The notes beneath the pieces are model-generated. The model worked only from the letters and a program-made list of their open reading frames with translations. It ran no database searches and was not told where the DNA came from. Of a stretch of 64,000 bases of DNA, positions 1,257-44,949 are shown piece after piece (within the stretch, counting starts at the first letter, position 1; each line of letters starts with the position of its first letter). The position numbers were made by a program, and so were the translations under genes. The stretch is from Saccostrea echinata (lineage: Eukaryota), in assembly GCF_033153115.1 (NCBI RefSeq), contig NW_026889779.1:3472001-3536000 (forward strand). The letters are read 5' to 3'.

Positions 1257-4200
1257 ATGGCGGACAAACAAAAACTAGGTATTAAAGTCCTTGTAGCTGC
1301 AATTGACTTTGGTACAACGTACTCGGGCTATGCCTTCTCTTTCAAAGATGAATACGAAAAGGATCCCACGAAAATCATGGCCAATACAACATGGGTGGCT
1401 GGACACAAGAATTTATTTTCTCAGAAAACCCCTACGTGTCTTTTGCTGAAATCTGACCAAAGTTTTCATTCGTTTGGATACGAGGCTGAAGATACATACA
1501 CTGATCTTGCCAATAAAGAAAAACATCATTCATGGTACTTCTTTCGGAGGTTCAAAATGATGTTACATAATAATATGGTGAGGAAATTATAATATTAGGA
1601 ATATATATTCTAGTTGTTTTTTTAAATTTATAACATGTATAAGACAAATTTTACATAATACGAGGGTTGTCCCAAAATTCCGTAGACAAGCGTCGTTTTG
1701 TAGTAACCCAGTGTCATAAACTAATGAAACTTTCAAAATAACTAAAACTACTAACAACTAATATTTTTAGTGTAAAACATTGCGTAATTACACACATTTA
1801 TCCTTTTTAAATGAAATAATTCAATGTCTGATGTAAAGAGGCGGCGCAATCTCAAAACTTGCTACTAAAAATCGGTATATAAAATGTGAAATCTTGCAAA
1901 AAAGAAATTTCTTGTCCAAATTTCGTGGGATAAAAATGATAGTTTCTCAAATTACATAAATAACTATCTTTATTCCAATTTTAACGCATATGCCTTCATT
2001 AATAAGAATGTTTTAACGTTTATTTGCACTGGCTAGACGCTTGACTGTGTAAAAAAAATGACGCCGCATTGACACAGGCGGCGCAATGGAATAGGATAAA
2101 TTGTAGATCGGAACTTTAATAGAGGTGCATGAGAAGAAACAAATGTTTGGAACACATAGATATACTCAAGTATGTATTATTTGAATGACATAAGAAGTTT
2201 TTCAAGGTATATATGGAAAACGAAGCAAATAAAGAGACCAGCCGAAAGAAATAGACAAAGAAATCGTCGTCAAAGCTACACAGTGCAGAAAGACGAACAA
2301 AAAGTCCCTCGGAGATAATGAGATTTTTATAAATTATTAATAGATGCATGCAATTTAAACTTTTTGGGCGTATATTTTAATGTTAAGTACATCATAACAA
2401 TTATAATATTTCATATTTATTTCACAAATCTTTATGTTAAAGTAGAAAATGTGATTCTGATAAGTAATGCATTTTCCCAAAAAATTCGTACCGGTGACGT
2501 TTACGTACTTTTTGACGTCGAAGATTGCGCCGGGTGGTAGGACACGGTAACATTAAAATTCCAATTAAACGTACGTTTTTCAAGTAATGATGTTAAAATT
2601 TCGTAATTTATCAGCTAAAAACGCACTTTATACACCCACAAAATTATGTAAAGATACCATGATTTCTGCAATAGATATGAACTCAGTTTACGGAATTTGG
2701 GGACAACCCTCGTAATGATTTTTTTACAGGATGAAAAAAAACAGCCTAAATTTTAATAATCATGTACAGGTCAAACGAAATTATTTTTTGCATTTAGAGA
2801 TGTTTCTTTGTAATTACGAATTAGACTTTGAACCGCGAAACAGTAATAGCAGACGACAGCGGCCAAAAAAAGCTCCCCGCCATGACAGTCTTTGCCCACA
2901 GCATACGGTATCTGAAAGATCACCTTCTAACCCATCTTAAAGTCAAAGGATTGGACGCCTTGGTCGAAGAAGATGATTGCATTCACTGGGTTTTGACAAT
3001 ACCCGCAATATGGAACGATAAATCTAAACAGTTTATGAGGGAGGCGGCAAAAGAGGTATGCTTGAAATTGTTTATTGTCAGATCATATTTCTTATAAAAC
3101 GCATGAAAATAAATGATATATCTATTCTGTACCAAAATATAAGTTCAAATTAAAGAAATTGTTAATGAATATATCGTCTCTAAAACACCAGGCAGGTATT
3201 GAGAGCGAGAATTTAAGCCTCGCACTGGAGCCGGAAGCGGCAGCTTTATATTGCAGAATGCTACCACTAGAGAGACTCTCCACAGCAAGTTCTACAAATC
3301 TCTCCATGTTTCAACCCGGAACTCGCTATATGGTGTTGGATTTGGGAGGTAAGACTTACCAAGATATGTAAAATACACCATTTTTACAAGTTAAATTTAT
3401 GATTCACAATTTGTTTGCAATGTTCTTGAAAAATTCTTTGTTCTGTTCATTTAACTGATAATTTTTTTATACACATCGAAACGTACAATATTAACAAACT
3501 GACGAAACACAAGTTTGTGTGTGTTTAAGGGATTAAGTGATGGAATCCGGGGAAAGGGGGGGGGGGGGCAGACTCATCAGCGCATGTCACGTTGTGTAAC
3601 AAATTAAAGAAAAGGAAATAAACTTTCCAACAATGACACGTGTCATTACCAAAACCATAACTTCGGAAGGAACTGTAATACAAAATAATGATGTATTGCC
3701 TGGAAAAAAGACCCTAATTAATCTGATTTTCTTTGTGACGTCATATTTCTTAAAAAAAATACGCATGAAAGTAAACCTCACATTAGCAAGTTTGGTCATC
3801 TATGGTATAATATTTTGTAAGAATCTCATTTTATTTAAAAAGATCCATAACTGGATCCAAAATCTTATGCCCAGTCACATTTATCAAGCTATTTTTCTAC
3901 GTTTTCAGTTATACGATATCAAGGTAAGAGGAATTGAAAGTGGTAAATCTTTAATTAAACATAAGTTTATATTAGAGAAGCTATGATGGCATATTTATGC
4001 AATCCACATAATTTTTGTAATGATAACATCAGATAAATCTTCACATCAAAAGTGATTATGATCAAGACCCTGAATTACAGTAAATTAGTAAATTGTATAA
4101 AAAAAAAAAAATGTTTATTATCTGTAGGTCACAGAGATGATCTTTCTGTTAACCATCGTTCGTTGGTCGCTTACTTTTGAACATTTTTAGCTTCTTTGGA

Positions 4201-7200
4201 ACCACTGAACCATTTTCATAAAATGTTGCTATATACCATCTAATGGGGAACAAAAACAGTAAATTTCATGATCTCTTCTTTGTGCCTAAGAGGTGGAGCC
4301 AAATGCAATACACGTATTTAAAATCTTCTTTGCTCTTGGAATCAAGTGTGAAGCATGATTATAATTTACAAGAAGTAAGCACTACCAAAATTATGAAAAT
4401 CATGAAGGGTCAATGATTGAGGGTTCAACATGCAGGGTGGAGTTAACTTGATCACATATTAAAAATACATTATTTATTAGAAAATCTTAATTATAATAAG
4501 TGCTCAACCTCTACCATACATGTAATTGTAAAATTCTTGGCCACGGGGTCAATTCTTCAGACTGTGGGGTGGGGCTTAATTGGTTGAATATTAAAAATCA
4601 TTACATCTTTGTTCTCTACGCGCTCATGCTCATTAAGCAGGCAAACTGTTTCCAAGATTATAATAATACTAAGCCCTCGGCCAAAATTGGAAAAAACATG
4701 GTTCATAGTCCCTAGTTTAAGCATCAGGGTGGGGCTTAATTGGTCATGCATTTGAAATACACTACAATTTATTTTCTCGTGTTTGCATGTTATCCATAGC
4801 CAGAATTGTAAATTCATAGCTCTTTGGTTCAGTGTTCAGACTCCTGGGATGAGTTTTCAATATATTTGGTTATATACTGAAAAGAAAAAGAAGCGCAGGG
4901 TTACATAATATGCGAAAATTGATCATGTCCATTCTATCAAAGAAACACACTCAGCTAGTGTCAGACTTGAATTATCGTTTACTCTCAATATTACAAAAAG
5001 CTATGTCCATTAATGACCATTATATTTTCCTCAGTTTGGGTGTCCGATGCTCTACCGGCCACATCCAACTCGGTTAAGACCTAATTTTGACTTATTAAAG
5101 CTATATATGGCGTATCTGAGCCAAAAAATAAAAATACGAGATTGAGTGAAGATAACCATGATATTTGTTTTAAATTGTGTCTGTTATTTAAATGCAGAGT
5201 CGGTAAATAAATCGGTTATTGTTTAAAATTCTAATATCTTTGAAACGTGATTGATTTAAATTGTGTAATTTACAGTAAAGTCCTATCTTTATATAAAGTA
5301 ATAAAACAACTAGAAATATCTTTTTTAATTTTAGTTAGTCCGAACTTATAAAAAATACGCCATATATGACTTTAAGCTATTGTTGAAATTCATGTTGATT
5401 GTTATTATAAATTAGAAAACTGATTTTACCAGTTCTTAGACTTTGTATTGGAAGACCATATGGAATACGGCACCTTTCTCGTTTACGTTGCATTAAGGCC
5501 CCACGGCGCCGCTTCTTTATTACCTGACAACATTCCCTTTTCCCCGTTTGCGTTAAAACAGCGCAAAATAAAACAGTTGGGTTACTTTTTTACGTATGAC
5601 CAAAATCTAACTGGTTATGATATAATGAAACTCTTGACATCTTTTAAAATCTTCATCATTACTCATGGACAATTTAGCAGGCAAACGTTTTGCATCAATC
5701 TGCAGCTAGCCCTGTAAAATATTGGGAAAAAAGTTTATGTTCCCCTGTACAGGGATTAGTCCAAGGGAGGGGCTAAGCTTGTCTTAAATGCAATATGAAG
5801 TTACAGTGTACCCTATCTTCATTATACTCGTGAACCTTTAGAAGACAAGGAGCATGACTAAAGATTATAGAGTCCTCATCAAACTATATAATTTTTGTCA
5901 CTTGAGACCAGTGTTTCAGTTCCAGGTGGGGCTAATGTGGTCATAAGAAACTTATGATATTCATGAACTGTCATTGCTAAGGACTATTGTTAAGTAAACT
6001 TGACAAGAAAGTTTTGATTGATCGAAAAAAAGCACATACACAACTGTGTCTTTTTACACAAGCTGTGTAAACAAGCACTCTGAGAGTATTGCATTAGCAA
6101 TACTAGTCTCCTACCGGCAAAAGTAATATATTAATGTGGCTCCCATTAAAAATTGAAAATGCCATAATTCTTTCAGAAATCATTGAAGCTGACATGAAAT
6201 GCAAACGTATTGCGTAACTCATCAAGGTAGACTTATATACCAAAAATCATCTCAATATCTGCAAGTGTGTAGAAAAAAAAGGGCGGAAACCAAGTGGGAC
6301 AGACTGACAGACAGAGGTCAGACAGACAGCTAGACGGACGGACAGACGAGGAGAAAACTTATAGTTCCCTCCGGTTTCACCGGTAGGGGATTTATAAAAA
6401 GGAACTTTAAAATTAAAAAAAAGAAAAAGTAAAGCTAACTGGATCAAAATTGTCTAGTGCTAAAGCTAACATTCACATTGGATGATGGCACAACGAAATA
6501 ACTAGATCAGAAAATTAAGGAATTAGAAAATGCAAACATGCACACAAGATTTAAATACAAATTCATCAAAGTTTTTTTTTTTAATTTTTAACCATATATT
6601 CATTTATATCATCATTTTATAAGCATAAGCACGCGGGGCAAGGCGGTTTGACCCCCTTTTCTGAGTTTTATACATGTATATATATGAAAATTACATACTT
6701 AGGCCAACTGCCCCTCCTATTTTTGTACCATAATATTTTTTGCCGAAATAAGTTTTTCCCACTACCCCCTACCCTATCTTTAAAAAAGTGGTCCCTTCCC
6801 CTTTTTTTTTGTCAAACTATTTTAGGTCTCTTTTTTCTTGTCATTTTTTTTTAATTTTCCCCCTCCACTCTAATAAAAAATACGATGCTATGGCCGATGC
6901 CAAAAGTTATTTTTAAAGTTTGATGACTTAAATTTTATTTTTCACCCCATACACAGCTGTAATTTATTTACAGGAGGGACTGTTGATGTAACTGTTCAAG
7001 AGGTACTGTCCGATTATACCCTTAAGGAACTCCACAAAGCCAGCGGAGGGGCATGGGGAGGAACCAAAATCGACGAAGCATTTATCCAAATGATTATGGG
7101 AATTGTTGGGAGTCCGGTGATGTTGAATTTCAAGAAAAATCATCCTGCCGATAACCTTGAACTTGTTCGGGAATTCGAAACTAAAAAGCGATCAGTGTCC

Positions 7201-8043
7201 ACTAATGTGAAAGAAAAAATCACTTTTCGAATTCCGGTATCCTTGGTAGACATTTTTGAGGATGAATATGATGAAGACTTAAAATCAACGATTTCGCAGA
7301 CGAGACATAAGGACAAGCTAATGTGGAAAGGAGACAAACTTCGCATGAACGGAGAAATTGTTCATGAACTATTTAAACATTGTTGTGAAAGTATTGTTAA
7401 TCACGTCAAGGAACTCCTTGTGCATCCGTTTTGCGATGGGGTAGAAAACATTTTAATGGTTGGTGGATTTTCTGAATGCAAACTTATTCAAGAAGCAATT
7501 AAAAACAATTTCAAGAATAACAGAGTCATCATACCAGAAGAAGCGGGCTTGGCTATTGTGAAGGGCGCCGTGCTCTTTGGACATAATCCTAAAACGATTG
7601 TTTCCAGGAAGACAAAATGGACGTACGGTGTCCAGTCCAATAGAAATTTTGAATCAGGTGATCCTCCAGAGAAAAGATTTAAAGTTGGTGGCATTGATAA
7701 ATGCAGAGATATCTTCAGCGTCCATGTGGGTGTCAACGAAACAGTTGAAGTGGGAACGCCCCTTGAACCCCGTTATTACTCACCTTTACACAAAGACTCT
7801 GATACTGTGGACATTCCAATTTACGTTTCATCTGAGAGATATCCTAAATATACTACCGATTGCACGTGCTCCTATGTAGGAAAAATGTCGGTAGATTTGG
7901 AGAAATCAAACAATGATAGGGAAATCGAAGTCAAAATGACTTTTGGTGGAACAGAGCTGATAGTTGAAGCTAAGGACATGGCGTCAGGGAATCCACGTAA
8001 GGCCAAGTTTAACTTCCTGGAAACCGATAACTTAACGAAATAA
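1257..8043 (+). CDS. HSPA12: Heat shock 70 kDa protein 12-like (HSPA12A/B family), 592 aa, 4 coding exons
   Basis: Exons 1257-1577, 2825-3055, 3192-3348 and 6974-8043, all GT-AG, phases 0/0/1, 1779 nt in total. Motifs: AAIDFGTTYSGYAF, WVLTIPAIW, LALEPEAAALYC, VLDLGGGTVDVTV (spans a junction), LMVGGFSEC, MTFGGTEL. An acceptor just before the ATG (1255) implies a 5'UTR exon upstream. Confidence 0.93.
1661..2712. mobile_element. Non-autonomous mariner-type element (1052 bp) in HSPA12 intron 1
   Basis: 27-bp TIRs, CGAGGGTTGTCCCAAAATTCCGTAGAC versus reverse-complemented CGAGGGTTGTCCCCAAATTCCGTAAAC (2 mismatches). TA on both flanks (1659-1660, 2713-2714). No transposase ORF. Confidence 0.85.
4120..4860. 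repeat. Degenerate satellite-like / Helitron-associated repeat
   Basis: Recurring motifs (aattgtaaattc, cagggtggggcttaattggt, aaaatcttctt) with roughly 160-170 bp spacing, reminiscent of oyster Cg170-like arrays. Boundaries approximate. Confidence 0.45.
5099..5371. mobile_element. Kolobok-type MITE, copy 1
   Basis: TTAA on both flanks (5095-5098, 5372-5375). TIR AGCTATATATGGCGTAT / AGTCATATATGGCGTAT. An inverted copy lies at 60944-61257. Confidence 0.75.
6070..6396. mobile_element. Helitron/Helentron-associated short element (HINE-like)
   Basis: Starts aacaag, has subterminal inverted motifs (tagtctcctaccgg / ccggtaggggatt), a (GACA/GACG)n microsatellite at about 6298-6347 and a terminal hairpin ccggtttcaccgg. 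Confidence 0.55.
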
Positions 8044-8359: not shown

Positions 8360-8685
8360 TTGATTGTGTGTTGTTTTATGTACCATTCGAGAATTGTTCA
8401 CTCATATAGAGACGTCACCATATACCGGTAAGGGCTTCAAATTTAGACTAGGGCCATTGAGCAGTGAGGGTTCTTTATCGTACCAACGTCTACCGTGACA
8501 CGGGGTCTCGGTTTTTAAGGTCTCATCCAAAGGACCCGCATCTTTCACTTTAAAGTGCCGAGCGCTTGGCGAAGAAACAGTTGCTACCTATATTTTTTAG
8601 ACTTGGGTCACTCGCGGCCGTGATTCGTACACACGACCTTCTGATCAAGGAGAGAGCGCTCTACCAACTGAGCTACCGTGACAGC
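8360..8685 (-). mobile_element. tRNA-derived SINE, full length, with TSD
   Basis: Minus-strand head GCTGTCACGGTAGCTCAGTTGGTAGAGC (box A) and a box-B-like GTACGAATC; (CAAT)n tail; flanking direct repeat TTAAATGATTGA at 8348-8359 and 8686-8697. Related copies at 20855-21145 and 35243-35573. Confidence 0.8.
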
Positions 8686-11814: not shown

Positions 11815-14800
11815 ATGTCTATAAGTATTGGAATAAGACAATTGTTTTTGTCCTTTGTTTTGGTTATCTGGGTTTCCTTTTCGTCGTCTTGGAGTTCTTC
11901 TGATGTTCAGACAATAAGGAAGAATGGGGTCCTCGGCACCAGCTATGACAGACTGGTCCGTCCGTCTCAGACTACAAATGTCAGTGTGGCTCTGAACCTT
12001 ATCACCATCAACTTTATGGTATGGAACATTTTTATATCACGAGTTTATAAGAATATTGTCTGTTAGCTCTCATTCTTATTTTTAAATACTTGTTTCTACT
12101 TTTTTTCTATATGATTTTCTACAAGATAAAATAAGATTATTTAATATTCAAATAAAGCCCCATAATTTCAACAATACATACATAGTATCCTTTAAACAAG
12201 GTATTAATTGTATTATTTTTCTTTAATTTGCCTGACATTCTGTAATTTATTATACTTGTTGTGGAATGAAATGAAAGACGTCTTGATCGTATAGTGGTTT
12301 ATTTGAGACTTGTTATTATCTATAGAAACAAATGAAAGTATTATGACGTCACAACAAAGTTAACGTTACATGAACTCGCGGATAATCCATGACACTCCGG
12401 GCACCAAAATGAATAGTAAAATTTTAAAAAGCTCATATTAAATTAACAGTTCCATTGAAATAAAAAGCAAGTTCATAATCATTAAATTAAGAAGTCCATT
12501 CATGGATTCTTTCTTTGGCTTTTGTTTTTGATACTCGATCCTCTTCTGTTCAGACACTTTATATTTCAGGTTTTGTATCAGAGTCTCAGTTTCCGAGTCT
12601 TTGTGACGTATTTCTGTGTTAGCTTTCTCCAGCTCCATGTTCCGAGTCTGTAGGTTGTTGTTTTGTTTCTTTATCTCTGCCATGTCCCTGAGATTCTTTT
12701 TCTGTGACTTATCTTTTTCCTTCTCCTCGGCCACTTTAAGTTTTTCTATCAGCTGAGTTTTCTCCCTTAGTTCCTCATCACGAGTCTTTACGGCGAACGT
12801 GTAATCTCTCTCCCTGCTATCTATGGAGCCCTGTAAAGTTTGCAGCTGATTTTCCAATCTTTGTACGTTGATCTTTAGATCACTTATTTCCCTTCGAGTG
12901 TAATCACATCGTGATTGAAGACTGTTGTTTTTAGCCTTGAGATGCTCCGAGTCAGAGGTGGCGGTTTTCAGTATGTCAACTTGGCCCCTTAATTCCTGAA
13001 TCTCCTTATGCAGACGTCCGTTTTCGTACGCCAGTTTATTTTTCTGTTCCATCATTTCCTTCATCACATTCTCTACACGAGTCTGAAAATCCTTTTGTTG
13101 GTCGAATTGTGACACTCTCTCTATCAGGGTGGCATTCTCATGCTCCAACGCGTTCCTCCTTTGTGTCTGTGTCTTCAGCTCTGATTTTAATTTTTGTATC
13201 TCGTTAGTCAACTTGTTACGTTCTTCTAGCATGGAGTCCATGGTCCGACTTATCGAAGAGATAGGCCTAGCTGTATTCAGTAAAACACTTGTAGGTCGAT
13301 GTTCAACGTTCAGTACTGTGGTTTCTGGCTTCTTACTCGTTTCTACGATATTGACACTTGTTGATTTGGTGGGCTCGTCTCTGTCCCTCGTTAGTTTCAT
13401 GTTGCATATACTTGTGTGGTGTTTTTTCTGACACTTTTTACACCTGTTGCGGGATTTACAATCTGAGGCGCGGTGGTTTCCCAAGCAGTTGAAACATAAT
13501 TTCTTCCGTTTTAAGATGTCAAATCTTGCACTTACGTCTGTAACTTTCTTACAATCCCCTGGAAAATGATTCTCTGTGCAACAATAAATGCATGGGCGGC
13601 TCTTCATCTCTGTTGTTTCAACATGAGGAGTTGACTCTCTCGTTTTCTGGTTATGTGAATAATGAACGTTGCGTTGTTTCTTTGAGGCTCCGGTAAGAAA
13701 CATTGCTGTTGCGTGAAATCCATCGCCGTTTTCAATCTGGCCTGATTCAAGGATTTTGACTTCTTTGCTGATAGCTTTACGAAGATTTTGTAGTGAAATG
13801 TTGTCACCATCGTACTCACGTGCAATGTTTTTCCTAATTTCAGTTGGTAGCTTGTTGATTATGACTGGAATAAGTAATGCTCCAAACATCTCTTGTCTTT
13901 GTCCTAGACACTCTAAACTCCTGACATGAGATTCCAAGAAGTCTCCATAATTTCTTAAACTAATGGCGTCATTTATGGGGGCAGGAAGTTCGATGAGTGC
14001 TCTCATATGAGCGTTAATAATTTTCTGTGGCTGACCAAATCGTTCTTTGAGCAAGTCTATTGCCGTTTCGTAATTAGCATTTGTAAGCGCAAATCCTGCT
14101 ATTGTTTGTGCTGCTGTGTCGCGTAATTGAGCTTTGAGATAGCTAAACTTTTGAATTGGCGTCAAAGTATGATTGCAATGAATCGTTGATTCGTAAGAAT
14201 CCCAAAATGTATTCCATTCTAATACATCTCCGTAAAAATGCGGAAGATCTAACTTTGGTAATCGGTGATTATTACTGGCGTGTTGGGATGTTAATGACAA
14301 AACATTTTCCTGGCTACTTTGTGCATTGAGATCAGTGGCAGGAACATTGTTCAAAATATTCTCACAAGCCGTTTCACTTGAGTTAATTGTAGCTGACGTG
14401 TTAACGTTATTATCATAAATTTCTGTGGCGGGTGTAAAACACTCAGCATTGGCATTCAAAGTTTTACATGGAATTTTTTCTGTAAATTTTTCAGTTTGCC
14501 TAATTTTACAGTCTAATTCATACATGTACTCATCTGTATTTGCGATTTCTGTTTCGATGTCTTCTTCAGATAGGGTATCCAATATGATGTCATTCAATTC
14601 TTGTAGGGTCTGCCTTTTCAGCGCGAGAGACTTTCTAATTATGTTGATTTCGTCGGTAATTTCTTCACTGGCTGAATTTTCCTTCAAGTCCAAAAACCGT
14701 CCAAATAGCTTTGTAACTGCTGATCTGTTGCCGGCTCGTATAGCTTTTAGTCTTCCTTCCATTGTATGTACTACCTAGAATTCCGTCGGTCACGGCACCA

Positions 14801-17800
14801 AAATGTTGTGGAATGAAATGAAAGACGTCTTGATCGTATAGTGGTTTATTTGAGACTTGTTATTATCTATAGAAACAAACGAAAGTATTATGACGTCACA
14901 ACAAAGTTAACGTTACATGAACTCGCGGATAATCCATGACAATACTTATGTTAAAACATTTCCTATATAAAGTTAAGAGGGTAAAATAATTTTTTTTATA
15001 ATCTGAAATTTTCTCGTCTAGCAAAGATATACCTCGGGGTTTATTATACATTTATTGACTGGGTTCGAGGGCAACATGGTTTTGTCGGACCCAAGAACCA
15101 AACTGTTTGCCTGAGGCCGTTAGGCCTCGGTCATAACTTTTGAAGAGTTGGTGCTAGGGCTTTCATATTTCAAATTTGTATTTCTTGTGATAAGTCCTTC
15201 CCCAAGATACCAATAGTTGTGACCTTTTATTCTTGACCTTGGAGTTTAACCTAATTTTGAAAAACTTCAACCTCGCCATAGCTTTTAAATGGTTGGTGCT
15301 AGGGCTTTTATATTTCACATGTATATTCCTTGTGACAAGACCTTCCCGTTTGCACTATTAATTTTGACCTTGGAGATCAACCTATTTTGAAAAACTTTAA
15401 CCTTGGTCATAACCTTTGAATGGCTGGTACTAAGGCTTTCATCTTTCAGAGGTGTATTCCTCTGAAAGGAACGTACGGGCTGCCATACGGGGGCATCAGT
15501 GTTTCACGAACACATCTTGTGTTCGTACAGAATTAAATAAGAACCAATTTTCAAAGGTATAACAATATGTGTTATTATACTTCTGTTAAAACATTTCCTA
15601 TGTAAAGTTAAGAAAGTGAAATAACTATTTTTCTATTTATAGTCTGAAAATTTTACGTCTTGCAAAGCTATTTTCATGTTTTGCCTATGAATTTGTAGCA
15701 TCATGTAACCCAACCCTCAGAAATTATGATATACATCAGCATAAAAAAACGATCACTTGTGGTGAGTGGGATAGCTCTTTCTTCAAAGAAACATTACAAA
15801 TTACCTGCTTCATTTCTAAGATAAAAATTTTCAAAAAAATATTTTTAATATTCCCAACAATCAAAATGAATTTGAATTACCATACCTTTACTGGATTCCG
15901 AAACTCCATAAAACTCCTTACAAACAAAGATATATAGCGGGTTCCAGTAAATGTTCTATATCCAGCCCCTTTCTTTACTCCTCACTAAAATATTTACAGC
16001 AGTGAAGGGGAAACTTCACGAGTACTTTACAACAGTATGTTTGAGAATTGGTGTAAATCAGATGTTGATACTTAAAAACTCCAAGGAACTTTAAAAAAAT
16101 TTGAAATCACAAAATTTTAACAAAATCAATAATATCAAAATGTACGACTTTTCCCCGATCATGACAAGAAGCACACGTACGGCGGATGTGACCAGTCGGC
16201 AGGGAATGCTCACTCCTCCATGGCACCTGATCCCACTTCTGATGTTTTTGGAGGTCCGTCTTTGCTCTGCTTCCGATTTGTATTGTCTAAATGGACTTTG
16301 AGCTTGAATACTCTTCATTATCTTCGTATTTCATGCAAGCCCTCGAGAATTTGTTCACGATGTGGGTTTGATAAAAGAGCTATCCCACTCTCAACCAGTG
16401 GATAAGTGTATATAATACAGCAAAGCATCAAATCGGCCGCAAACAAAATTCAAAAGTACATTCACAACTCAGCATCCAAGGAGAGCGCAAGATATTCAAA
16501 ACTGAGTGATCATTTTTATTTCAGACTGTCTTCAAAGCAAATAAATAAATATATAAATAATAAAATAAAATAAATAAATGGAAATTTGTTCATCAAACTG
16601 ATTCATCGATGTAATAAAGTCAGTGATTAATGATAAGAATTCATTGTCATCGAAAGGAAGATGTAGTTCTATTATTTTCAGCATTCGCATCTTCTCGAGT
16701 CTTCCCGGTAAGCTCAGAAAAACACAATTTTCCGCTTGCCGGAAAGACCTAAAAGTTGTGATTGTATATTCAGGGAGGACCTATTGTAAACTCTTTTTAT
16801 ATCATCATAAATTAAGAAATGAAAATGCAATTGAAACATAATAACAACAATTAAAATTTTGTTTAAAGCAAGGTTTTAAACATATTTTATTCATGATTTT
16901 ATACATGTTATCATTAAAAAATTATTTTACTGAACTTATATAGAAATAGAGGAGTAACGTCTCATTTCCCCATGTGCACACAATTAGATCGGCCTCTGCT
17001 GCGGCCGATAATAAGGAGAGGCATTATTTAGTTATAAGAACTTGTTTCCAGTCCTTTTGATGTTGTCAATAAAATATATGTCAAAGCAACAAGGAACTAA
17101 ATCTACTTAATAACCAATGAATTGAAATTAAATTATTTTAATTACGAACTTACTTAATTACCACTGAAATGATTCGTGGAAAGTAAGTTTATTATATTAT
17201 GTTGTAGAAAAGATAAGTTAAAAGGACCTTTAGATTACATGACAAAGCAGAAAAAATATAAAATTCCACATGTATAATAATTTGAAAAGTCTTAATTTTT
17301 AGGATATAAAGAACCAGGTTTTATCAACGACAGGCTGGATAGAGGCGGTAGGTCTGTTTTGAGAAAATATCTGCACAGAATAATTTTACTCTTTCCAAAA
17401 TAGCTTAAAATTTACTCCGAATACTTTCACTAAAAGTAACACTGTGTTACATTCAGAGTTGGGAAGATCACAGGTTGGCCTGGAATGTTTCTAAATACCC
17501 AAACATAACAGATATCTTCGCAGACGAGAGTGAGGTGTGGCGGCCTGTTTTCTTCATAGATAACTCGTTAGTTTCAACTTTATTTTCCTTTCTAATTTTC
17601 CTATCTTTCAAAACGTCAAAAGATATTTTTGATCAGCATGCATACATTTAAAAATTCCGAAAAACATGGTAATATTTCTGATAAACATGAATTTCCAATG
17701 CCATTTTGTACAATTTTGTAATCTAAAAAAAAGGTTCAAGTATTTTCATCATATCTTGAAATGAAGGAAGATCTTTTTTTTTTTACATGTATTTGAATTT

Positions 17801-20120
17801 TATATGCGATTTCTCTTAAATACAGGGTTTCTGACCTAAACATTATCTCGGATTCTAATCTTTTGTACCGAGTCACTTATACTCCCAGTTAGCACAACAA
17901 CGTTATTAAAACGTTATAAAAACGTTATGAAAATGTTATGAAAACATTTTTAAAAACGTTATTACAACGTTATTTTGTGTGGTTTTTTAAACGTTATTAT
18001 AACGTTTTGCAAAAACGTTGTATTGTAATGTTTTAAAAACATTTTTAAAAACGTTTGGAAAACATTTTTAAAAACGTTTTGAGAACATTTCTTAGAATGT
18101 TTTTAAAACATTTAAAAAAATCAATTTTACAACATAATAAACAATATATTTCTTATAATTTAATAAATTTAAATCCATTCATTAATGTTGCCTAAACACT
18201 GTTTTTTTAACACCTGCACAATAAAATTACAGTCTTCCTTCAAATGAAATTTGTACTGTTTGAAATACGTAAAGATCACAGCATCCTTATTCCATTAGAA
18301 ATTAATCTGTTGTACACTTGGACTTCTCTATTTTCATCTGAAAAACAAAAATTTGGACATAAAACTTTGACTAAATGATTACCCATTCATACTCGTACAT
18401 TTCTTTTTAGTTAAACATATCCATGTATTAGGGCATCTAACAAACTACACATACTAGTATATAAAAATCAGATAATCACAGAAAAAGTATGTTTTGGTAT
18501 ACAGTTGTATTAATAAACAAAAATTTACATGTGTAAATATATCTATATATTTCTGATAACCAACGTCAAACATACCTTATCATATTTAATAAATTCCTAC
18601 AGGAAGGTATAAATCAAACCTCTTCGTCCCACATCTCATTAAATCGTAAGAGATTGTCTTTGATGCTTTGTAAGCCTTGTAAGCAGCAGCTATTAAAATG
18701 TAATGTGAAATTCATTATAAGTGAATGTATAAGCATATTGAACGAAGGCGTCGAAAGCAAATTAAAAGTGGGGGGGGGGGGGGGTAAACCAACAAAAACG
18801 GGGTAAGCCCGAATTTTCACTAACTCTATTATGTCTATATTTGCAAAAAAAGTGGGGGGGGGGCTAAGCCCCTCCCTAGACTCCCCGGTTCCGACGCCTA
18901 TGTTTAATAGTTAAATGAAAACAACACAGCATTACTGGTATTTAGATCATTTTCCTTTTGCTCTATACATTTTCCAATGATTTATAAGTTGATATGTTAA
19001 CTGAATCTTCATGCATTTTCTTAGCATTAATGGTGAAAAACTTACTTTTAATAATTCTTTAAAAGAGTGCACTTTTCAACCCTCTCTCCAGTCTCAGTGA
19101 ACTGACCCGTGCCATTTGTTTGTATCATTGTCCTCCTTATATCTCCAACCTGCATGGAAACAATTACATTCACTAAAATGAGTGTTATATTTTATCATGA
19201 AGAATGTGGATTTCGAAATCTTTGATTGCTAGCAAATATATAATCAAGCCTGAGATTGATTAATTAATTCCTCTCCTTTCCCTTCCAAAAGAAAATAGGT
19301 TTAACATGTTTAACGTGGCATTGTATTCTGTAATACATAAACAAATCTAACAAATCATTTTACATCTCTTAAGGATTATCTAACCCTGTCTTGTTAAGAC
19401 CCCCTCCCACACCCATTCCTATTCCCAACTATGTTTTAATTATGTTTTAAACCTCGTCACACATTTTTAATATATGTAAATAAACTCAAGTTTTCAAACA
19501 ATAAATCGCCCGCCTAATTCAAATGCAAATGAACTTAAATCCAACTCAACAAACATATATACACCTAAGTCTATGAGAATGAAAGATCTAAGATTCTAAA
19601 TACATATGTATTTACAGCTACAATATGATTGCTAAATATACAATATGAATACTATTTAAAATTTAACATACCATACGTTGACATTTGTAAGATATTCCCC
19701 TATTCCTTTTCTTTGTCTTACAAGAATGCCGCCGGGTTTTTCAAAACTGTGATTCTGTTGACCTATATAGATCACATGGACATAGTTTGCAACAAGGATC
19801 GGCTGCATCAGTCCTGGCCATGGCATCCCGCTGTGTCACTCAATTAACTCTCGATAAACACATTATCGAAGGGGGAACTTAACTCCCATAGCACAAATAA
19901 ATGACTCCACTGAATTATTTAATTCAGGAACTTTGTTGAACAAATAATTTTTCAGAATTTTTTTTAACTCTCCTTGTTATATATATAAATACTTTTTACA
20001 ATGGTATAAGAGATAAATATGAACACATTCGTGTTGTTGTTGTTGTTTTAATTTTATTACCACGACTCAAAATCAATCATAACTCACACTTTGGAGCTAT
20101 TTATAAGAGAATAGAAGTTT

Positions 20121-20153
<33 letters not shown>

Positions 20154-22673
20154 CGTCTTACACTTAATAATTAAAAAAACTTCTGATGCTTGGAGTTGGT
20201 ATTTCTGTAACGTTTTTACAATGTTTTGCAAACATTTTAAGACAATCTTGTATTCATGTTGTCTGGTCACATTTGTATTTCATGAAATTTATAATAATTA
20301 TTACACAAGGTATGATTTTTTTTCAATCATGTATTTAATGTATAGCTAAATGATATTTTATCATTATAGAGATTTATGTTAAATGCTAAATGTTTTCTGA
20401 AAACCTCCTTGCAACACTAACAAAATGTTATGAAAAACATTTTTAAAATGATTGTTAAGAACGTTTTCTGATAACGTCTTTACAACCAAAATTAAACGTT
20501 TTAAAAACATTTTATAAACGTTTTATTAAAAATGTTTTCAGATAACATCATTACAACGGGAATAAAATGTTATGAAAACGTTTTGTGCTACCTGGGCTGG
20601 AGAGGTAGAGTGGGAACAACCCCGGATGTTCACCACCCATTGCAATGTCGATATCACGTTCTACCCTTTTGATACTCAGCTATGTGAAATCAAGCTAACA
20701 AGCTGGGGTTATACAACCGACGAAATTGAACTTCAACCAGCAAATTCAGAAATTATCACGGAGGGTTTGGAGTATGTAATATCAACATTTTGTGGCAACA
20801 TGTTCATCATAAAATTGACCAATGCATGGCTTAAACCTCAAAAATCATTTATCAGTTTTGTTTGTTTGTTGTTAAACGTCCCTCTCGATAATTTTTTATT
20901 CATATGGAGACGCCACCCCTTGCTGGTGGAGGGCTGCAAAATTTGTCCTATACTCGGCACTTAGGGCCATTGAGCAGTGAAAGATATTTTTCGTGGCAGC
21001 ACCTACTGCGACACGTGACCTCGGTTAATACGGTCTCATCCAAAGGACGGTCTCAACGTCCCGCAGTGGATTCGAACACGCGACGTAAGGATCAACTCCT
21101 TACATCGCGACTCTAAAACAAACGCTCTAATCACTGCGCCACGCTTAACACATTTGGTATCAATTACATAGATACTATTTTTGGCCTCAATTCTTATATC
21201 CTTGAATGTCATTTTTTCTTACTGTAGTTATAAAAATTCACCAGATCTTTACACTATTATATTAAGGTTGAATGTGTACATGTCTATCTCCAACGATAAC
21301 CTCAAAATACACTGTATATGAAACATGTTTTTTAATTTAATTAACAAAAAATGCTTAAAAAATTTGCTTCTTTTCCTGTTTTATAATAACGAATAATTTC
21401 TGATATAAAATGCGTGAGAGATAAAAAGTTGTTATCCATTTTTACAGTATTTGACGTGAGAAATATGTCGCATATTTAAAAATATTGTTCTCCAAAGTTT
21501 TATTCTTTGCACTTTTACCATTAAATTACTCACAAAAATCAAGAACAAGAAATCAATCGACATGCAGTGTTCCAATCTTAAACAAATATTATTCTATGTT
21601 TCACAGACCTAACGGTGAGTGGCATTTGCTGCACACAAACGTCAAGAAAAACCAATTGACGGAATTGCGAGCAGACGGCGTGATGACGAAACACTGGGAA
21701 ATTGTGTTCACATTAGTGGTGCAGAGAAGGACGGCATACTACGTCACAGGCATTTTGTTACCAGTGTTCCTATTGTCCTATCTCAATACAATTGTTTTTC
21801 TCCTGCCAGTGGAATCTGGAGAAAAAGTATATTTGGGTGAAATTAATCTGATTTATAACTAATTTAAAAGTGTTCATTTAATCCATAAGATACGCTTTAA
21901 AAACTTTCCAAATTCATGTTAACATCTTGATACCCATGTGTTCCACATACCTGCTAACTCCTATTTGTGTCATTTTATTGTTGCAGATTGGATTTATCCT
22001 TACGGTACTTTTATCTTTAGCCGTGTTACTAACAATCATAACGGATAAAATTCCATCAACTTCTATCGATGTTTCAATTATATGTAAGTATATTTTAAAA
22101 CTTTTTTACGAAAAATCAAGCACAAGATTTCTTTCCAACTACGGTTTTTGAAATACATATCTGAACAAGCTTCACATTAGTGATCATAATAAGCTGGTAT
22201 TTAGATTACCTGACTATCGTTTTTTTTCAGCTGTGTACCTGGCCATCACCTTATGCTTCAGTGTTGTGTCCTGCATTCTGTCTGTCTTAGTCATGTCTGT
22301 CAATTTCCAGGACGATTCAAAGCCTCTACCAAAATGGGTCAAAAAACTTATAAGGAACGATCTGTTTCCATTCGACTGTTTGAAAAAATGTAGCTACTGC
22401 TTAAAACCGAGCAGGAACAAGACCTCGTGTAATAATGATGCGGGGATTCCAGAGGTTAATATGACCGTTGAAGATGTTGACGTAACAGGGAAAGAGGATT
22501 CGGGTTCCATCAAAAAGCCTGGGAGGTTTTCCTGGAATGATGCCGCTAGAAAACTGGATGTTCTCTTTTTCTATGTGACATTTATTTTAATCACCATGGA
22601 AACCATAGTTTTTATTGTGGTTCTAATGATAGGTGGAACGGCTAATGCACAGAGACTTATAAATCAACTTTAA
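11815..22673 (+). CDS. Nicotinic acetylcholine receptor-like (Cys-loop) subunit, non-alpha type, 449 aa if the exonic transposon is removed; possibly a disrupted allele
   Basis: Exons 11815-12018, 17303-17347, 17457-17566, 17826-17883 joined to 20599-20771 (split by an insertion), 21607-21826, 21987-22083 and 22231-22673; 1350 nt. Signal peptide, YDRLVRP, WEDHRLAW, VWRP, Cys-loop CNVDITFYPFDTQLC, NGEW, M1, ESGEK-M2, M3, M4. No vicinal CC in loop C. Confidence 0.9.
12257..12394 (-). repeat. 3' LTR of the BEL/Pao element
   Basis: 138 bp, direct repeat of 14804-14941, 137/138 identical. Confidence 0.95.
12438..14762 (-). CDS. gag: 774-aa BEL/Pao Gag (DUF1759 plus 3 CCHC knuckles) fused to a CCDC150-like coiled coil
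   Basis: RLPKLDLPHFYGDVLEWNTFWDSY...NYETAIDLLKERFG (DUF1759, from about aa 167). Knuckles CIYCCTENHFPGDC, CFNCLGNHRASDC and CKKCQKKHHTSIC. VLLNTA ends at aa 498, followed by about 250 aa of heptad-rich coiled coil (KNKLAYENGRL) and a hydrophobic tail. Confidence 0.9.
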   Translation of the reverse strand: MEGRLKAIRAGNRSAVTKLFGRFLDLKENSASEEITDEINIIRKSLALKRQTLQELNDIILDTLSEEDIETEIANTDEYMYELDCKIRQTEKFTEKIPCKTLNANAECFTPATEIYDNNVNTSATINSSETACENILNNVPATDLNAQSSQENVLSLTSQHASNNHRLPKLDLPHFYGDVLEWNTFWDSYESTIHCNHTLTPIQKFSYLKAQLRDTAAQTIAGFALTNANYETAIDLLKERFGQPQKIINAHMRALIELPAPINDAISLRNYGDFLESHVRSLECLGQRQEMFGALLIPVIINKLPTEIRKNIAREYDGDNISLQNLRKAISKEVKILESGQIENGDGFHATAMFLTGASKKQRNVHYSHNQKTRESTPHVETTEMKSRPCIYCCTENHFPGDCKKVTDVSARFDILKRKKLCFNCLGNHRASDCKSRNRCKKCQKKHHTSICNMKLTRDRDEPTKSTSVNIVETSKKPETTVLNVEHRPTSVLLNTARPISSISRTMDSMLEERNKLTNEIQKLKSELKTQTQRRNALEHENATLIERVSQFDQQKDFQTRVENVMKEMMEQKNKLAYENGRLHKEIQELRGQVDILKTATSDSEHLKAKNNSLQSRCDYTRREISDLKINVQRLENQLQTLQGSIDSRERDYTFAVKTRDEELREKTQLIEKLKVAEEKEKDKSQKKNLRDMAEIKKQNNNLQTRNMELEKANTEIRHKDSETETLIQNLKYKVSEQKRIEYQKQKPKKESMNGLLNLMIMNLLFISMELLI
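14804..14941 (-). repeat. 5' LTR of the BEL/Pao element
   Basis: 138 bp, followed on the minus strand by TTT and the PBS TGGTGCCGTGAC. Confidence 0.95.
15050..15520. repeat. Composite repeat: Crypton-like hairpin fragment plus Helitron-associated tandem units
   Basis: 15052-15130 matches 53600-53670 and 46050-46100 (gagggcaacatg...tgtttgcccgagg). 15131-15460 has three units of about 140 bp (cataactttg...agggctttcatatttca...ccttgtgacaagacc), ending ggggcatcagtgtttcacgaacacatcttgt. Confidence 0.55.
16150..16335 (+). mobile_element. Penelope-like element 3' fragment
   Basis: ggatgtgaccagtcggcagggaatgct matches the reverse complement of 54528-54560, which adjoins an RT-like fragment. Confidence 0.55.
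17884..20596. mobile_element. Non-autonomous CMC/EnSpm(CACTA)-like DNA transposon (2713 bp) inserted in nAChR exon 4
   Basis: TIRs CCCAGTTAGCACAACAACGTT / CCCAGGTAGCACAAAACGTT; 2-bp TSD CT (17882-17883, 20597-20598); dense AAAACGTT/AAAACATT subterminal repeats at both ends. Removing the element and one CT restores ...YRVTYT-GEVEWEQP. Confidence 0.9.
18746..18902. mobile_element. Small poly-G-containing MITE nested in the CACTA-like element
   Basis: Inverted ends aggcgtcgaaagc ... ggttccgacgcct; a related end (cataggcgttggaacc) occurs at 54415. Confidence 0.55.
20855..21145 (-). mobile_element. tRNA-derived SINE copy
   Basis: Shares tagggccattgagcagtga and ggtctcatccaaaggac with 8360-8685; box B GTTCGAATCC on the minus strand; (TTTG)n tail. 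Confidence 0.7.
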
Positions 22674-33590: not shown

Positions 33591-36500
33591 CTATTTTTGA
33601 ACGTCCCTTTTTCTGTGTTCTTTTGCACGTAAAATAGTCTGTTCAAACAGTTTACAGTAGAGTTTCACAGCGTCTGGGGAATCATCATTCCCAGGAATGG
33701 GATATGTAATAAAGGTAGGGTTACAATTAGAGTCCACAACACCTACAGTGGGTATAAGCATTTTGGCACATTCTGTGACAGCTATATGATCACTTCCAAT
33801 ACTATTCTGTGTATGAAGAAAGATAACAACATCAGGGTGCCTGGTTAGATTACTGAAAAGTCTGTCAATATTGGTCAGAAGACCTGATTTCCAGAAGCGG
33901 CAGTGGGAATATTCACCAGCATTGCGAGCTGTTTTTTCCACAAGAGGCATGTGCTGAGCATTTCTGGAAACAAATAATACAATGCCTCCTCTGTACACCA
34001 CATGAGCTATAAAATTTAAGGCCAAGTGTAAACGTGGTAAAGTTCTGTCCAGATCAAATATATCTGTATTGTGCCGGAGTCCATAGAGAAAGGACACCAT
34101 ATATGGATGTCTACATCCGAAGTGATGACCATAATGCACCCTGTTTCTGTAAAGTGTTTGCATGTCTACCATTTCTTTGACTTGAAAAAAATCTGGATGC
34201 TGCAAAGCATTATCTTCAAATGTATCCCCTAGGAGACCTGCAAAATAGTCATTAACTGCAATTTAATGTACAGTAACAGTTAAATATTATTATACCTCTG
34301 TGAATTTTTTCTATATAAAAATTTGATGAATAAACATGCTATTTTTTCCAAACAGCTCCTACTGTCGAATAGTTTTTGTGCTATTTGCCCATGGTGAAAT
34401 AGTCATTAAACTATTCACCGACAGCATTCTGTTTTCCTCGCTTTTCATCTCGGAACTCTTCTGGTTTTATCAAGATTGTGACGTAACACAAGTAAAAACT
34501 GCTTCAGTATAATAAAACACCTATTTACTGACTATTCGGACAATAGCAAGTTTATCGTCCCCCTCAACAGCAACTATTTCCCTCAGCTGCGCCTCGGGAA
34601 ATAGTTGCTGTCTTGGGGAACGATAAACTTGCTATTGTCCTCATAGCCAGGTGTATAATATAACATAGTTAATTAAAAACAAAACTTTGTCAAAAGCCCT
34701 TTTTTCTTTCTAATAACTGCATTTTTGTCATCATTGGTTTTTTTTTGGGGGGGGTGGGGGGGTGGTTACTCTCACTCACCACATGTAGTGTTGATAATAT
34801 AAAAGATTAATGGCTTCACTACAAGTTACTAGGTGGCTGGCTCATGAAAGTCTTACAAGTAAACATCAGGAAATGTAAGAGTCTTCACACTAAAGTCTTA
34901 ACAATAATAAATGTATTTGTAGTGCATTGCTTTGCAAATGATAACAGTTTCTTCATATTATGAGTCATTACTCATTAGACTTTATATACTGTATGTGTAC
35001 TTGAAAAAGCAGGCTTCATATTTCAGCTGCTTTGGTGCAGACAGCAATGTGCTAATTCATGAATCCCATTAATAAATCATAAATAAATACAATACATAGC
35101 GAGGACATGTGTAATGCTAATTCATGATTACGCCAATCACTCAATACCAAGTGATTGCGCTTAATTTTGAATATGTCAATTTTTGTACACGGACAGTATT
35201 TGCACAGGGGTTCAAAATACTTCAAGCCCAACCCAATTCACTGGTCACAGTAGCCTAGTGGTAGGACACTCACTTCATAATTGGGAAGCCCAAGTTTGAT
35301 TCTCATTCACCACACCACATCAAATCTAAGATGTATACATATGTAGTGACTGTTCCTTCATCACGCCCCCGGAATTAGAAGTGAGAGTCTTTTGAATATG
35401 AGACCTTAAAAACCAAGGTCCTGTCAAGGTAGGCATTGGCATGCTAAAGAACCCACAGTGGCCCTGAGTGCCCAGAAAAGTTCTTAATTTGAAGCTTTAA
35501 CTGGTATATGGTGATATCTCTATAGGAGTGAAAAATTCTCAAATGGTACATAAAACAACATACAATCAATCAATGAAGCCCAATGCCCCTAGACTTTTTT
35601 TCTGGATTTAGACTTGCCACATAGAAAAGCCATATATGTGATCCTGGTCAGATATTGTAAATATCAATAATAAACAGAATATTCAATATTGTAAAATTTA
35701 GAACTTGATAACAAATTATTTAGCAATTCATTTTACACCATCAAAATCTTGTGTTTTGTTGCAAGCCATTTTCACAATACATCACTGAACATGCAAATCT
35801 TTATTTCAGTTTTTTAATTTAAAATATTCATATTTTTTCTTAAGCCTAAAAAGAATTTTTGATACATTTAGATTTGACCAAAATAACAGAAAACTTAGAA
35901 ATATATCAAAATCAAGAGGAATGATATATTTTAAGGACCCTAGTGTGAAAAACATCTGACTTGTTTGTGAAGAGAACACAATATTGTATGTATATCAATT
36001 TTAAGAATTATTTTTGTGATTTGTAAACTTTGTTTTTTTGAATATAATATGTTCAATCAAAAACAAATGTCTTCTAATTAAGGAATAAATTTAATAGCTA
36101 CCCAATTTATACAGTATAAAGTGGGTTGAGACAGTTTACGCTTTATAAACCGCAAAGCAGGAATCTGAAATACTTACATACACAATATTTCATTTCTGAA
36201 ATATTAAAGATCCCAGAACTTTATGATACCCATAAAGCTTGAAAATATACCCACGTTTATACTCATTTTCCATTGGTTTGTAATCAACCAGCTCCACTTC
36301 TTTTGCCAAAGGCTTCTCTGTTTGGTTTTTAAATACTTTTTCCTCATATATCCTCTCAATTCGGAGTGGTCGGGGGAGAACTACCTTAGCCTTTGTATCT
36401 GTCTTGTACTTTCTCTGGGGACACAGATGAGGGATGTAGGCTCCTAAAAATAATTAGCATGCCGTAACAGAGTTATCTTTCTTTCAGTGCGATAGGCACA

Positions 36501-38324: not shown

Positions 38325-41300
38325 ATGAATAACGCATTACGGTTATGTGCAGTGTGTATCCTCTGGACACTTTCTGCAAAAGCTCAGACTGATTTAACCA
38401 GAGTCGCAGATAGTTATGGACCTTTGGTTGTTGAAACAACAGTCAAACTACTCCGTGATGCATGTTTAATTAATGACCACTTATTTCTTCGACGAATTGC
38501 CTCTTTTGAGACTAATGATGGCCTTGCTATTCTGCCGGGGGACCACGGTGGTATCTGGAAGGTAAACCATACGAAAAACCTTTCGCATCACACTGAATGA
38601 TTGACAGTCATTTTTTTTTTAAGAAATTGAATTTAAATTTTGAGAGCAAAATACCATGCTGGAAAATAAAAGCGGTCGGTAATTTATTTTACATGTACTC
38701 TGGATTATGAGATTTAAAGTACATGTATGTTAGAAATGTTTTCCAAAAGAATTTTGATTTAAATTTTGACACTAATACCGAAAAATTACGCATCGCACAA
38801 ACAAAATACGTAAACACAGTTTTCATGAATATTTATTATCGTACGAACTCGAATTATCACACTTGCAAACCTACCGACGAATATGTGAAACATGTTGGAA
38901 AAACATGTTTTTATTCGTGTCTCTTGTAACATTTTTAATTTTCTTTCACAACTGAAATTTATTTCTGTGAACAATATTCCGTTCAAGCGTATATATATGG
39001 TTTTGATGCTTTTTAAAGCTAGAAAATTCTATTTAATTCATTTGATTTCTCCTTTTCCAATGATTCATTGAGATCTGAGGTTCTAAATTCCGTAACCATC
39101 AGGAATCGAAATAAATTTGGCTTACATGAAAAAAGAAATGCATTTGTGTGAGCTATTTGGTTCTATCAGTAGTTTCGGACCACATCACTTTAAGGTCATA
39201 GGATATTCAAAATCGGGAGAAAGTAGTATTTTACTATAGCTACTTATAACTTGTTGTGTTTAGACTCAAACTGATTTGTTTCAAAATAAAAGTAAGGCTA
39301 AATTTTATGTGTTTTTAGGGGAAATAAATTTTTCTCATGATTTTAAATTTCAATATACGCGTAGATATAGAAGTATAGATTTGGGGAGAGTGCAAAAATA
39401 AGTGTGGCTTGACAGGAAAACTTCGTTATAAATACTAGTATGTGTTTTAGCAATAATAAAGCCTTCGTGTACTAACTATTTTATATATTTCTTAGTAGAA
39501 ATATATGTCTTTGAGTATTTTTGTACATAACGAGGTGTCAATATAGCTCTGATTTATATATAGGTGGATGAGGAAATGTTTAACTATACCCAGTCGGGAA
39601 CGCCCAATTTGCAAAACATTTACAAAGAGGTGTTCAGAACCCTGTTTGTGGTATGGAAAGGAATAACATGGAAAGAATTGAATAAACCCTTATATTCCGG
39701 ACTTGCTGCTGCAATTTATCTCAGAGCAAAAACCAACGAAACTATGCCCCTTTCAAAACCAGACCAAGCAAAATTTTGGAAGAAGTACTTTCGAACAAAT
39801 GGAAACGAACAAGCTTTTCTAACAGCAATGCAGGCAATGCCTGAAGGTAATTATAACTATTTTTATTTCTAATGCGTATTTTCAAAGATTACACAGTCTG
39901 ATTAACTTCCGGCGAATACCGGGGGTGACTACAGTTTTGTACTCGGTCAGTCGGTCAGTTAGTTGAACATTTTTTTTTTTTTTGAGATGCTTGCAGATGT
40001 TGAACTAATTTTTGGTACATGTATGTGGGTTACCTTAACTCACGACCTTCTGTAGATATCCATAATGATATTTTTTCNNNNNNNNNNNNNNNNNNNNNNN
40101 NNNNNNNNNNNNNNNNNNNNNNNNNNNNNNNNNNNNNNNNNNNNNNNNNNNNNNNNNNNNNNNNNNNNNNNNNNNNNNNNNNNNNNNNNNNNNNNNNNNN
40201 NNNNNCTCGGTATTGCATTTTCAGTACTCTCAAATTGCTAGTTTGATTGTTGATATTACATGTACAATATAATTTTCTGAGATATATTTTTTTCCGCAGG
40301 TTGCAGCGTCCCTACACAAGTAGATCTTACCTTCATTGTTGAGACGTCTACTAATGTTAAATCCGCAGAGCTGAGACAGACAAAAGACTTCATCAACAGG
40401 ATCGTAAACGGTTTAGTTGTTTCTAGTTCGAAGGTTCAACTTGCTATGGTTACATATGGAAGTCAGGCAAACATTTTATTTCATTTGAATGCCTACTCAA
40501 ACAAAATAGACGTGGTTTCTAACATTGATTCCATGCCTTTGAGCGGGGGATTGGTTGCTACAAATAAAGCCTTAAAACTAACGAGAGAAGAAGTATTCGT
40601 GGCCAAAAATGGTGCCAGAGCTGGTGCTGCACAAGTAGCGATCCTCATTACCAAAAGTCCGCCAGACAACAAGACGGAAACCGAAATCGAGTCCTCTATC
40701 CTAACCGGAAGTGATGTAACGCTATTCACCATCGCAATTGGTTCAGCCCTTAATTCAAATGATCTGGTTAACATCAGCAGCCAACCTAACTGTGTTCATT
40801 ATACTCACATAGACAATTTCTTGGATTTGCAAGACTTTGCTGCTGAAATGGATGAAGTTATATGTCGAGGTAATTATTTGACAAATATATATTTAGAAAA
40901 TTTCGAAAACCGTACTACTTGTAGAAAGTAAACATTTATAGATCAACAAGAAAACTTTTCTTAAACTGTTTTAATTCTTAACCAAATTACTCTCCATGAT
41001 TAAGTTATTTGTTCATTATCCAGCTATTATAAAGACCAAATCTTCATAAGTTTGGTATGCATTTAGCGCCAGTCAAATTGTCAAATGGAAGATTTACCCA
41101 TCCATGCAATGTGGATGCCTTACTTTCCATACCTGACAATCCTTACGGTACCACGATTAAGGTAAGAGCTCAAGATTAATACGCAATTCAAAAATGTAGG
41201 AAACTTGCACGTAATAACTTTACAAGGCCAATCCAAAATACAGTCGTTCAAGACTCTTAGTAAAGAATGATACAAACATGTCCATGACTTTTTATCAGAT

Positions 41301-44152: not shown

Positions 44153-44949
44153 AAGATTCCATTGAGGGGATTTTTGCAGCAAAACGTGAACACTTTCATG
44201 AAGACTTTCATTAATATATACAGTATACATGTTTTGAGATGTAAGCTATTAAATTAAATAAATGATCTACAAAAGTTGACATCGAAATTATTTTTGTTTG
44301 TTTTTTTCTTGTTTCTGTTTTTTTTTTTTTTTTTTTTTTTCTCGAAGAGTTCTTTTTCTGAAAGAAAATGACGGGCCACACATCTATGATTCGAAGCATT
44401 GACACCCACGCAATATCCTTGTGATAATTCCTGTATTCATTTATCATGATACTATTTACTACAAAATTACTAATGCACAGTCTTAATTGGTTATATGTTA
44501 CAACTAAGTGAGTGTTTTCTAAGTAGATGGACTGCAAACATTAAGTTTTGAATTTATTATGTCATTTAAGTTTAACGTAAGCTGAACAAGGATTATCAAA
44601 GACTTTTTGGAGTCATTTTTGAAACAATATTTATTTAAACAAGATTAGATAAATACACATTTATATAGATACGATAGTGAACTGCCGAATGAGAATACCA
44701 TAAACTAAGGTGGTTGCAGTGGATTTCTCTGGCGCACACCAAGGTGTTGTTATTTACTTTTGGGCTGTGCCTAGTGAAAATGAAATTATCAATTTTTGTA
44801 ATAGATCTTTGTTTGACAATTGATAACGTATTAATACCCTCCTTCAAGAGTATTTAATGCTGAGTTGTTCGTATCTAACAGCTTTGGCTCAGTTTCCCAT
44901 GGTGAAAACTTATTCCACTACGCTGTGCATGAAATAAAAACTAAACAAA

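Follow-up and report, generated by a model that had tools for sequence, protein, structure and literature searches.

A transposon with CACTA/EnSpm-type ends in exon 4 of an oyster nicotinic acetylcholine receptor gene: a probable null allele, probably fitted as an intron by annotation

The window analyzed here is a stretch of 64,000 nucleotides from the oyster Saccostrea echinata. Its plus strand carries, at positions 11815–22673, a Cys-loop receptor gene of the nicotinic acetylcholine receptor (nAChR) type. The gene counts as 8 exons, which we number 1–7 because exon 4 is given in two parts, one on either side of a transposon. Exon 1 (11815–12018) contains the ATG and encodes an N-terminal hydrophobic segment. 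Exon 2 (17303–17347), exon 3 (17457–17566) and the 5′ part of exon 4 (17826–17883) were placed by the gene model, exon 5 (21607–21826) and exon 6 (21987–22083) by the gene model and RNA contigs from run X1, and exon 7, which extends to the stop codon (22231–22673), by both of these and Pfam. The 3′ part of exon 4 (20599–20771) encodes G140 and the Cys-loop (C154–C168), and its splice from 20771 to 21607 is found in X1. The earlier note had regarded the remaining exons as intact and, indeed, deleting the transposon and one CT in silico leaves an uninterrupted ORF of 449 aa. The element-free protein is 89.7% identical to S. cucullata XP_062602771.1 and about 70–72% identical to the Crassostrea/Magallana orthologs.

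Pfam matched Neur_chan_LBD (PF02931) in the receptor, both cysteines of the Cys-x13-Cys loop (C154 and C168) are invariant in the homolog alignment, and four membrane helices are seen in the predicted structure. The top PDB match is alpha-7 (E 7e-56). An nAChR alpha subunit is defined by an adjacent Cys-Cys pair in loop C. No such pair was found opposite the alpha-7 loop C in the alignment (residues about 210–225), and the oyster orthologs likewise have no adjacent cysteines there. Judged by its sequence, the receptor is not an alpha subunit, and the name “alpha-7-like” used in RefSeq is a similarity label.

Other features of the window are an HSP70-like gene (2840–8043), a ribosomal S2-domain gene (33591–34262), VWA and chitin-binding (CBM_14) exons (40281–50115) and a run of 128 N (40078–40205). 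Intron 1 of the nAChR gene contains a young LTR element (12257–14941), which together with the transposon makes two recent insertions in this gene. Its 138-bp LTRs are 99.3% identical, and its 5-bp target site duplication (TSD) is ATACT. It has one minus-strand open frame of 778 codons with DUF1759, which we take by association to be a Bel/Pao-type gag, and no pol. A very high-copy SINE-like repeat lies in intron 4 (20850–21150), with a related copy at 8360–8535. Spliced antisense RNA covers nAChR exons 5–7 on the minus strand (21460–22385) in X1 and X3, two runs from different studies. Its GT-AG introns are 21816–21950 and 22029–22209, together with a skip from 21816 to 22209; depth and record lengths point to a middle exon of 78 nt (21951–22028).

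The transposon in exon 4 occupies 17884–20596 (2713 bp). Its 14-bp terminal inverted repeats (TIRs), at 17884–17897 on the plus strand and 20583–20596 on the minus strand, are identical at 13/14 positions, and the left one carries a GT at 17888. A CT is duplicated on both sides (17882–17883 and 20597–20598) and is present as a single CT in the element-free contig described below. These data agree with the earlier description of a 2713-bp TIR element splitting exon 4; the end coordinate then given, 20608, is that of the second candidate acceptor, and the element itself ends at 20596. Motif counts revealed subterminal repeats at both ends, made of 11–12-bp AACGTT-type units on the left (17899–18129) and of the same motif with a 71-bp period on the right (20388–20584). 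AACGTT occurs 15 times in the element, always close to either end, whereas the remaining window averages 0.28 per kb. The TIR pattern allowing 2 mismatches gave 9 matches versus 5.6 expected, which is no enrichment by itself.

The longest ORF of the element does not exceed 98 aa. When 12 of the 36 element open frames were scanned, Pfam returned only one match, which was sub-threshold, one homolog search came back blank and Rfam gave 0 matches; across these 12 open frames and this homolog search, no Transposase_21-type DDE transposase was found in this copy. Animal CACTA-related elements are marked by CCC termini and a 2-bp duplication in the sections of PMC1636069 available to us, and subterminal repeats are a feature of Spm (PMC2613891). 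The oyster element has TIRs starting with CCC, subterminal repeats and, at this one locus, a 2-bp TSD. Since this copy has no Transposase_21 ORF, the element is assigned by its ends alone, and we file it as non-autonomous with CMC-EnSpm-type ends. As far as the same sections go, it shares CCC-starting TIRs, a 2-bp target duplication, tandem repeats and spliced transcripts with the animal CMC-EnSpm or “TRC” group, which comprises SmTRC1 of Schistosoma and elements of Tribolium and Aedes (DeMarco et al. 2006, PMC1636069). The start of its TIR is similar to the TIR sequences that this paper prints for Tribolium and Aedes. Unlike these elements, the oyster copy has no ORF above 98 aa and thus no Transposase_21 ORF.

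Family copies were found in four runs (X1, X2, X3 and X12) and at two further loci. Contigs from X3 cover the element interior at about 90–97% identity, and X12, which is DNA of a relative about 93% alike in the exons, shows raised depth over the element ends. Scans with TIR patterns returned 9 loci. Two of them, unrelated public metagenome contigs (L002 and L006), carry the right end of this family, identical over 36 bases, next to other flanks and with a break exactly at the terminus. Together with the AACGTT clusters, they show that the element is not a product of chance. Four others (L003, L005, L007 and L008) have related TIRs and the same subterminal repeats. The remaining three (L001, L004 and L009) have no similarity outside the pattern and were judged to be chance matches. 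None of the 9 loci has both element ends on one contig, and no second full copy was obtained from them. The copies in X3, X12, L002 and L006 make this a dispersed multi-copy family, and the metagenome loci, presumably host animal DNA, suggest that it is a wider one. Across the 6 related ends, base 6 of the TIR varies (G in 3, C in 2, A in 1), so that the GT is not a fixed TIR feature.

The family also has a minus-strand transcript of its own (18200–19900), made of small exons and encoding no recognizable protein, which is possibly a decayed accessory gene. Two minus-strand GT-AG introns were located in it, at 18338–18575 (joint 18337–18576 in X1) and at 18690–19045 (joint 18689–19046 in X1 and X2). 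The second one harbors a nested high-copy repeat (about 18750–18925), with a related copy at 54392–54515 (73%) and a depth of about 1000 in X12.

Contigs from four of the 15 matching runs (X1, X2, X3 and X12) were compared with the window. None of the 15 contained half of the sequence words searched for, a result that carries no weight as to expression. In X1, record 3 (501 nt, depth 12.9) corresponds from base 115 onward to 20597–20771 with 0 differences and is then spliced to 21607. This record does not continue into the element and contains positions 20597–20602 (CT-GGA-GAG, encoding T-G-E), which a transcript spliced at 20602 lacks; it is therefore the element-free form. By depth arithmetic, the 114 bases at its start probably consist of 58 of exon 3 and 56 of the 5′ part of exon 4: this arrangement predicts depths of 4.00, 3.86 and 10.76 in the three bins, where 3.99, 3.85 and 10.7 were observed, whereas the spliced form would predict 4.28 and 10.35. 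Taken together, four X1 pieces totaling 860 nt show 0 differences from the window. X2 has zero cover over exons 3–4, and the depth of X3 in both junction bins is not assignable. Neither these two runs nor X12 are informative on the junction. The joints 17887–20603 and 17887–20609 are absent among the 15 joints listed, which is no evidence of absence given that contigs drop rare forms and that X1 may come from a non-carrier. An intact allele whose exon sequence equals that of the window is thus expressed, as observed in one run, X1. Because this mRNA is element-free and its exons are identical, the insertion is likely recent, as had been supposed from the intact exons, and likely still polymorphic; this, too, relies on that one run.

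Reading through the left junction gives Y-T-P-S-stop, the immediate stop reported previously. Potential frame-restoring splice sites nevertheless exist at the element ends, and splice arithmetic reproduced each of the products that the earlier note had derived. The AG dinucleotides downstream end at 20541, 20602, 20604, 20608 and 20610. Joining the donor at 17888 to 20602 would remove a candidate GT-AG intron of 2715 nt (17888–20602, plus strand), exactly the element plus one TSD, and yield TPKVEW with 0 aa change. Joining it to 20608 would yield TPKW and a loss of 2 aa. The TTTTCAG acceptor within the element (20535–20541) leads out of frame, with a stop at codon 184. We also considered a route from 17872 to 20604, which costs 6 aa, uses a poor donor and removes G140, and the in-frame skipping of all of exon 4, which costs 77 aa including the Cys-loop; both were rejected as giving implausible receptors. 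When insertion sites were simulated along this CDS, 65 of 1230 (5%) yielded a length-neutral GT-AG pair and 288 of 1230 (23%) at least one in-frame pair no more than roughly 15 nt away. Given this baseline, the length-neutral, in-frame geometry needs no special cause. Both TIR orientations offer a GT.

The 17888 donor scores 4.3 bits, near the exon 3 donor that it had been said to resemble and within the benchmark range (1.1–10.6). Acceptors were benchmarked on 10 introns of this locus, six from the nAChR gene and four minus-strand ones from contigs. All 10 carry a pyrimidine (C or T) at −3, and their tracts contain 0–3 G. By comparison, position −3 of the GAG acceptor at 20602 is a G and its tract contains 5 G, and the one at 20608 has 6 G and two AGs just upstream. 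A per-position matrix, based on these ten sites, failed to distinguish between the candidates (20541, −4.1; 20602, −2.8; 20608, −3.8). A pooled model, built after this matrix and trained on only the same 10 introns, gave +2.8 for 20541, which lies in the top 4% of 3166 AGs and within the benchmark range (−0.5 to 7.4), versus −7.6 for 20602 and −7.4 for 20608. The 20602 site, already called weak in the earlier note, scores under 80% of all AGs in this model, and five further AGs within the element outscore 20541.

Insertion-allele transcripts would for the most part either be truncated within the element, whose sense strand bears nine AATAAA poly(A) signals, or have 17888 joined to the 20541 site or to some other acceptor inside the element, with a frameshift and likely decay, or skip exon 4 in frame. 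The 17888–20541 product has its stop at nucleotide 552, well before its last junction (968), and is for this reason a likely decay target.

A rare 17888–20602 product would carry G140P. The glycine had been described as usually conserved in these receptors, and the alignment bears this out: among the 148 distant homologs spanning the site (of 150 examined), 145 have G at position 140, 3 have S and none has P, which puts this column among the best conserved. Position 141 is variable, with K in 13/148. HTGEVEW stands in each of the 9 other full-length oyster proteins of the alignment. In the predicted structure, G140 lies within a 3-residue turn between strands 134–137 and 141–153. The form shorter by 2 aa carries the proline too. 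AlphaFold, run on the proline form only, gave a pLDDT of 97 over residues 131–140. Models of this type are insensitive to single substitutions, and since the predictions follow the alignment, a confident fold of the proline form says little. With a proline in this tight beta-hairpin turn, the product likely would not make a normal subunit, and a working receptor subunit from it is unlikely.

The candidate intron already exists in RefSeq. XP_061188035.1 (S. echinata, “neuronal acetylcholine receptor subunit alpha-7-like”) is the window gene spliced at 17888–20602 and reads YTPKVEW. It is 99.6% identical to the element-free model and differs only at residues 140–141, where it has P-K. The intron is the deletion that restores the empty site, slid by 4 nt to the nearest GT-AG, and the RefSeq model is for this reason not independent evidence of splicing. 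Likely, a spliced aligner carried an element-free transcript or an ortholog across the insertion and its gap was pulled to the nearest GT-AG, giving TPKVEW. The RefSeq intron would then probably be a forced annotation fit and the P-K an artefact. XP_061188035.1 is a predicted model whose own support may include junction reads, and we count it neither for nor against splicing.

We then weighed the readings in which the insertion allele would be spliced. In the first, a minority of its transcripts would leave through 17888–20602 or 17888–20608 and encode a full-length but probably defective protein. The donor is usable and the next AG beyond 20541 lies at 20602; the in-frame product would escape decay and might therefore be over-represented among stable mRNAs, and XP_061188035.1 matches it. 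Such leakage would parallel the imperfect splicing of dSpm and worm Tc1 insertions in exons. A single-locus intron gain by insertion of maize Ds is also said to have been described by Giroux et al. in 1994. As with maize Ds, dSpm and Tc1, splice sites near the element ends and latent host sites would make near-precise removal possible; those cases rest on cDNA, whereas the oyster splice is a candidate read from the sequence. Set against the rank of the GAG acceptor in the pooled model and the absence of proline at position 140 in all 148 homologs, we regard this leaky rescue as unlikely.

Transposon-derived introns are well known from the accessible parts of the literature (PMC11282704, Mikina et al. 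2024; PMC3443670). A published introner pattern, in which the element carries the 5′ site and co-opts the 3′ site, appears in the parts of PMC12130899 at hand. That screen (Gozashti et al. 2025) covered 8,716 genomes, required at least four introns in different paralogy groups or unrelated genes, and described five CMC-EnSpm families, in grasses, clover and dinoflagellates. The portions of its supplement consulted show no animal among 22 “CMC” rows and a count of zero in the rows of C. gigas, C. angulata and O. edulis, and “Saccostrea” is absent from the supplement files searched, which exclude files 13 and 14. A literature search retrieved no report of this locus and none of any bivalve introner. 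As in introners, to the extent that these sources describe them (PMC12130899; bioRxiv 2022.06.06.494994, Gozashti et al. 2022; PMC11282704), a non-autonomous TIR element sits in an exon, its TIR carries a potential donor and the host exon provides a potential acceptor. Unlike them, the oyster case is a single locus with a candidate splice, a very weak acceptor and a near-invariant residue altered. Should the insertion allele be spliced at 17888–20602 at an appreciable rate in carriers, it would represent a transposon-born intron observed while it still segregates in a mollusc that also expresses the empty allele. Its source would be a CCC-type EnSpm family with a donor in either TIR orientation, and this family could be the first bivalve introner; we hold this to be quite improbable.

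Another explanation is that the insertion is not germ-line but stems from mis-assembly or arose somatically in the animal that was sequenced; it is left some room by the fact that none of the listed DNA runs matched at least half of the stretch searched. However, the exact 2-bp TSD and two intact termini at the family boundary are typical of transposition and rarely arise from assembly error, so that we give this explanation very little credence. True intron birth, with efficient splicing, a functional P-K protein and an introner family in Saccostrea, would fit the carried donor and co-opted acceptor, the GT in both TIR orientations and the CMC-EnSpm introners of plants and dinoflagellates, but it is scarcely believable in view of the near-invariant G140, the weak acceptors, the 5% and 23% chance baseline, the unfixed GT, the lack of a clearly coding flank at the 6 related ends (a rough ORF check only) and the zero families listed for the three other oysters.

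The earlier note had left the choice between a null allele and an introner-like intron gain. The first branch is supported by the element-free mRNA, the GAG acceptor, the competing site at 20541 and G140, while the second is geometrically possible and is otherwise only modeled in RefSeq. We therefore favor, with a probability of about three in four, a null or near-null insertion allele and, in RefSeq, an intron that was probably forced by annotation; the gene family concerned is a hugely expanded one. A CACTA/EnSpm-type element has entered exon 4 with a 2-bp duplication and most likely produced a recent, still polymorphic null allele, not a functional new intron. Bivalve nAChR genes number 99–217 across five species, according to the part of PMC6896357 available. 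Because bivalves carry about 100–200 such genes and an intact allele exists, a null allele is likely tolerated.

The locus carries a warning for annotation: a polymorphic exon insertion can pass as a clean GT-AG intron through a gap slide of a few bases. False residues, here P-K, then enter protein databases, and introner screens that work from annotation could take such introns up. As a null allele, the insertion would be ordinary, one of numerous transposon insertions into an oyster gene family that has expanded. If carriers do splice it, it would offer a rare case of a segregating intron gain in an animal, in which both alleles could be compared in one individual.
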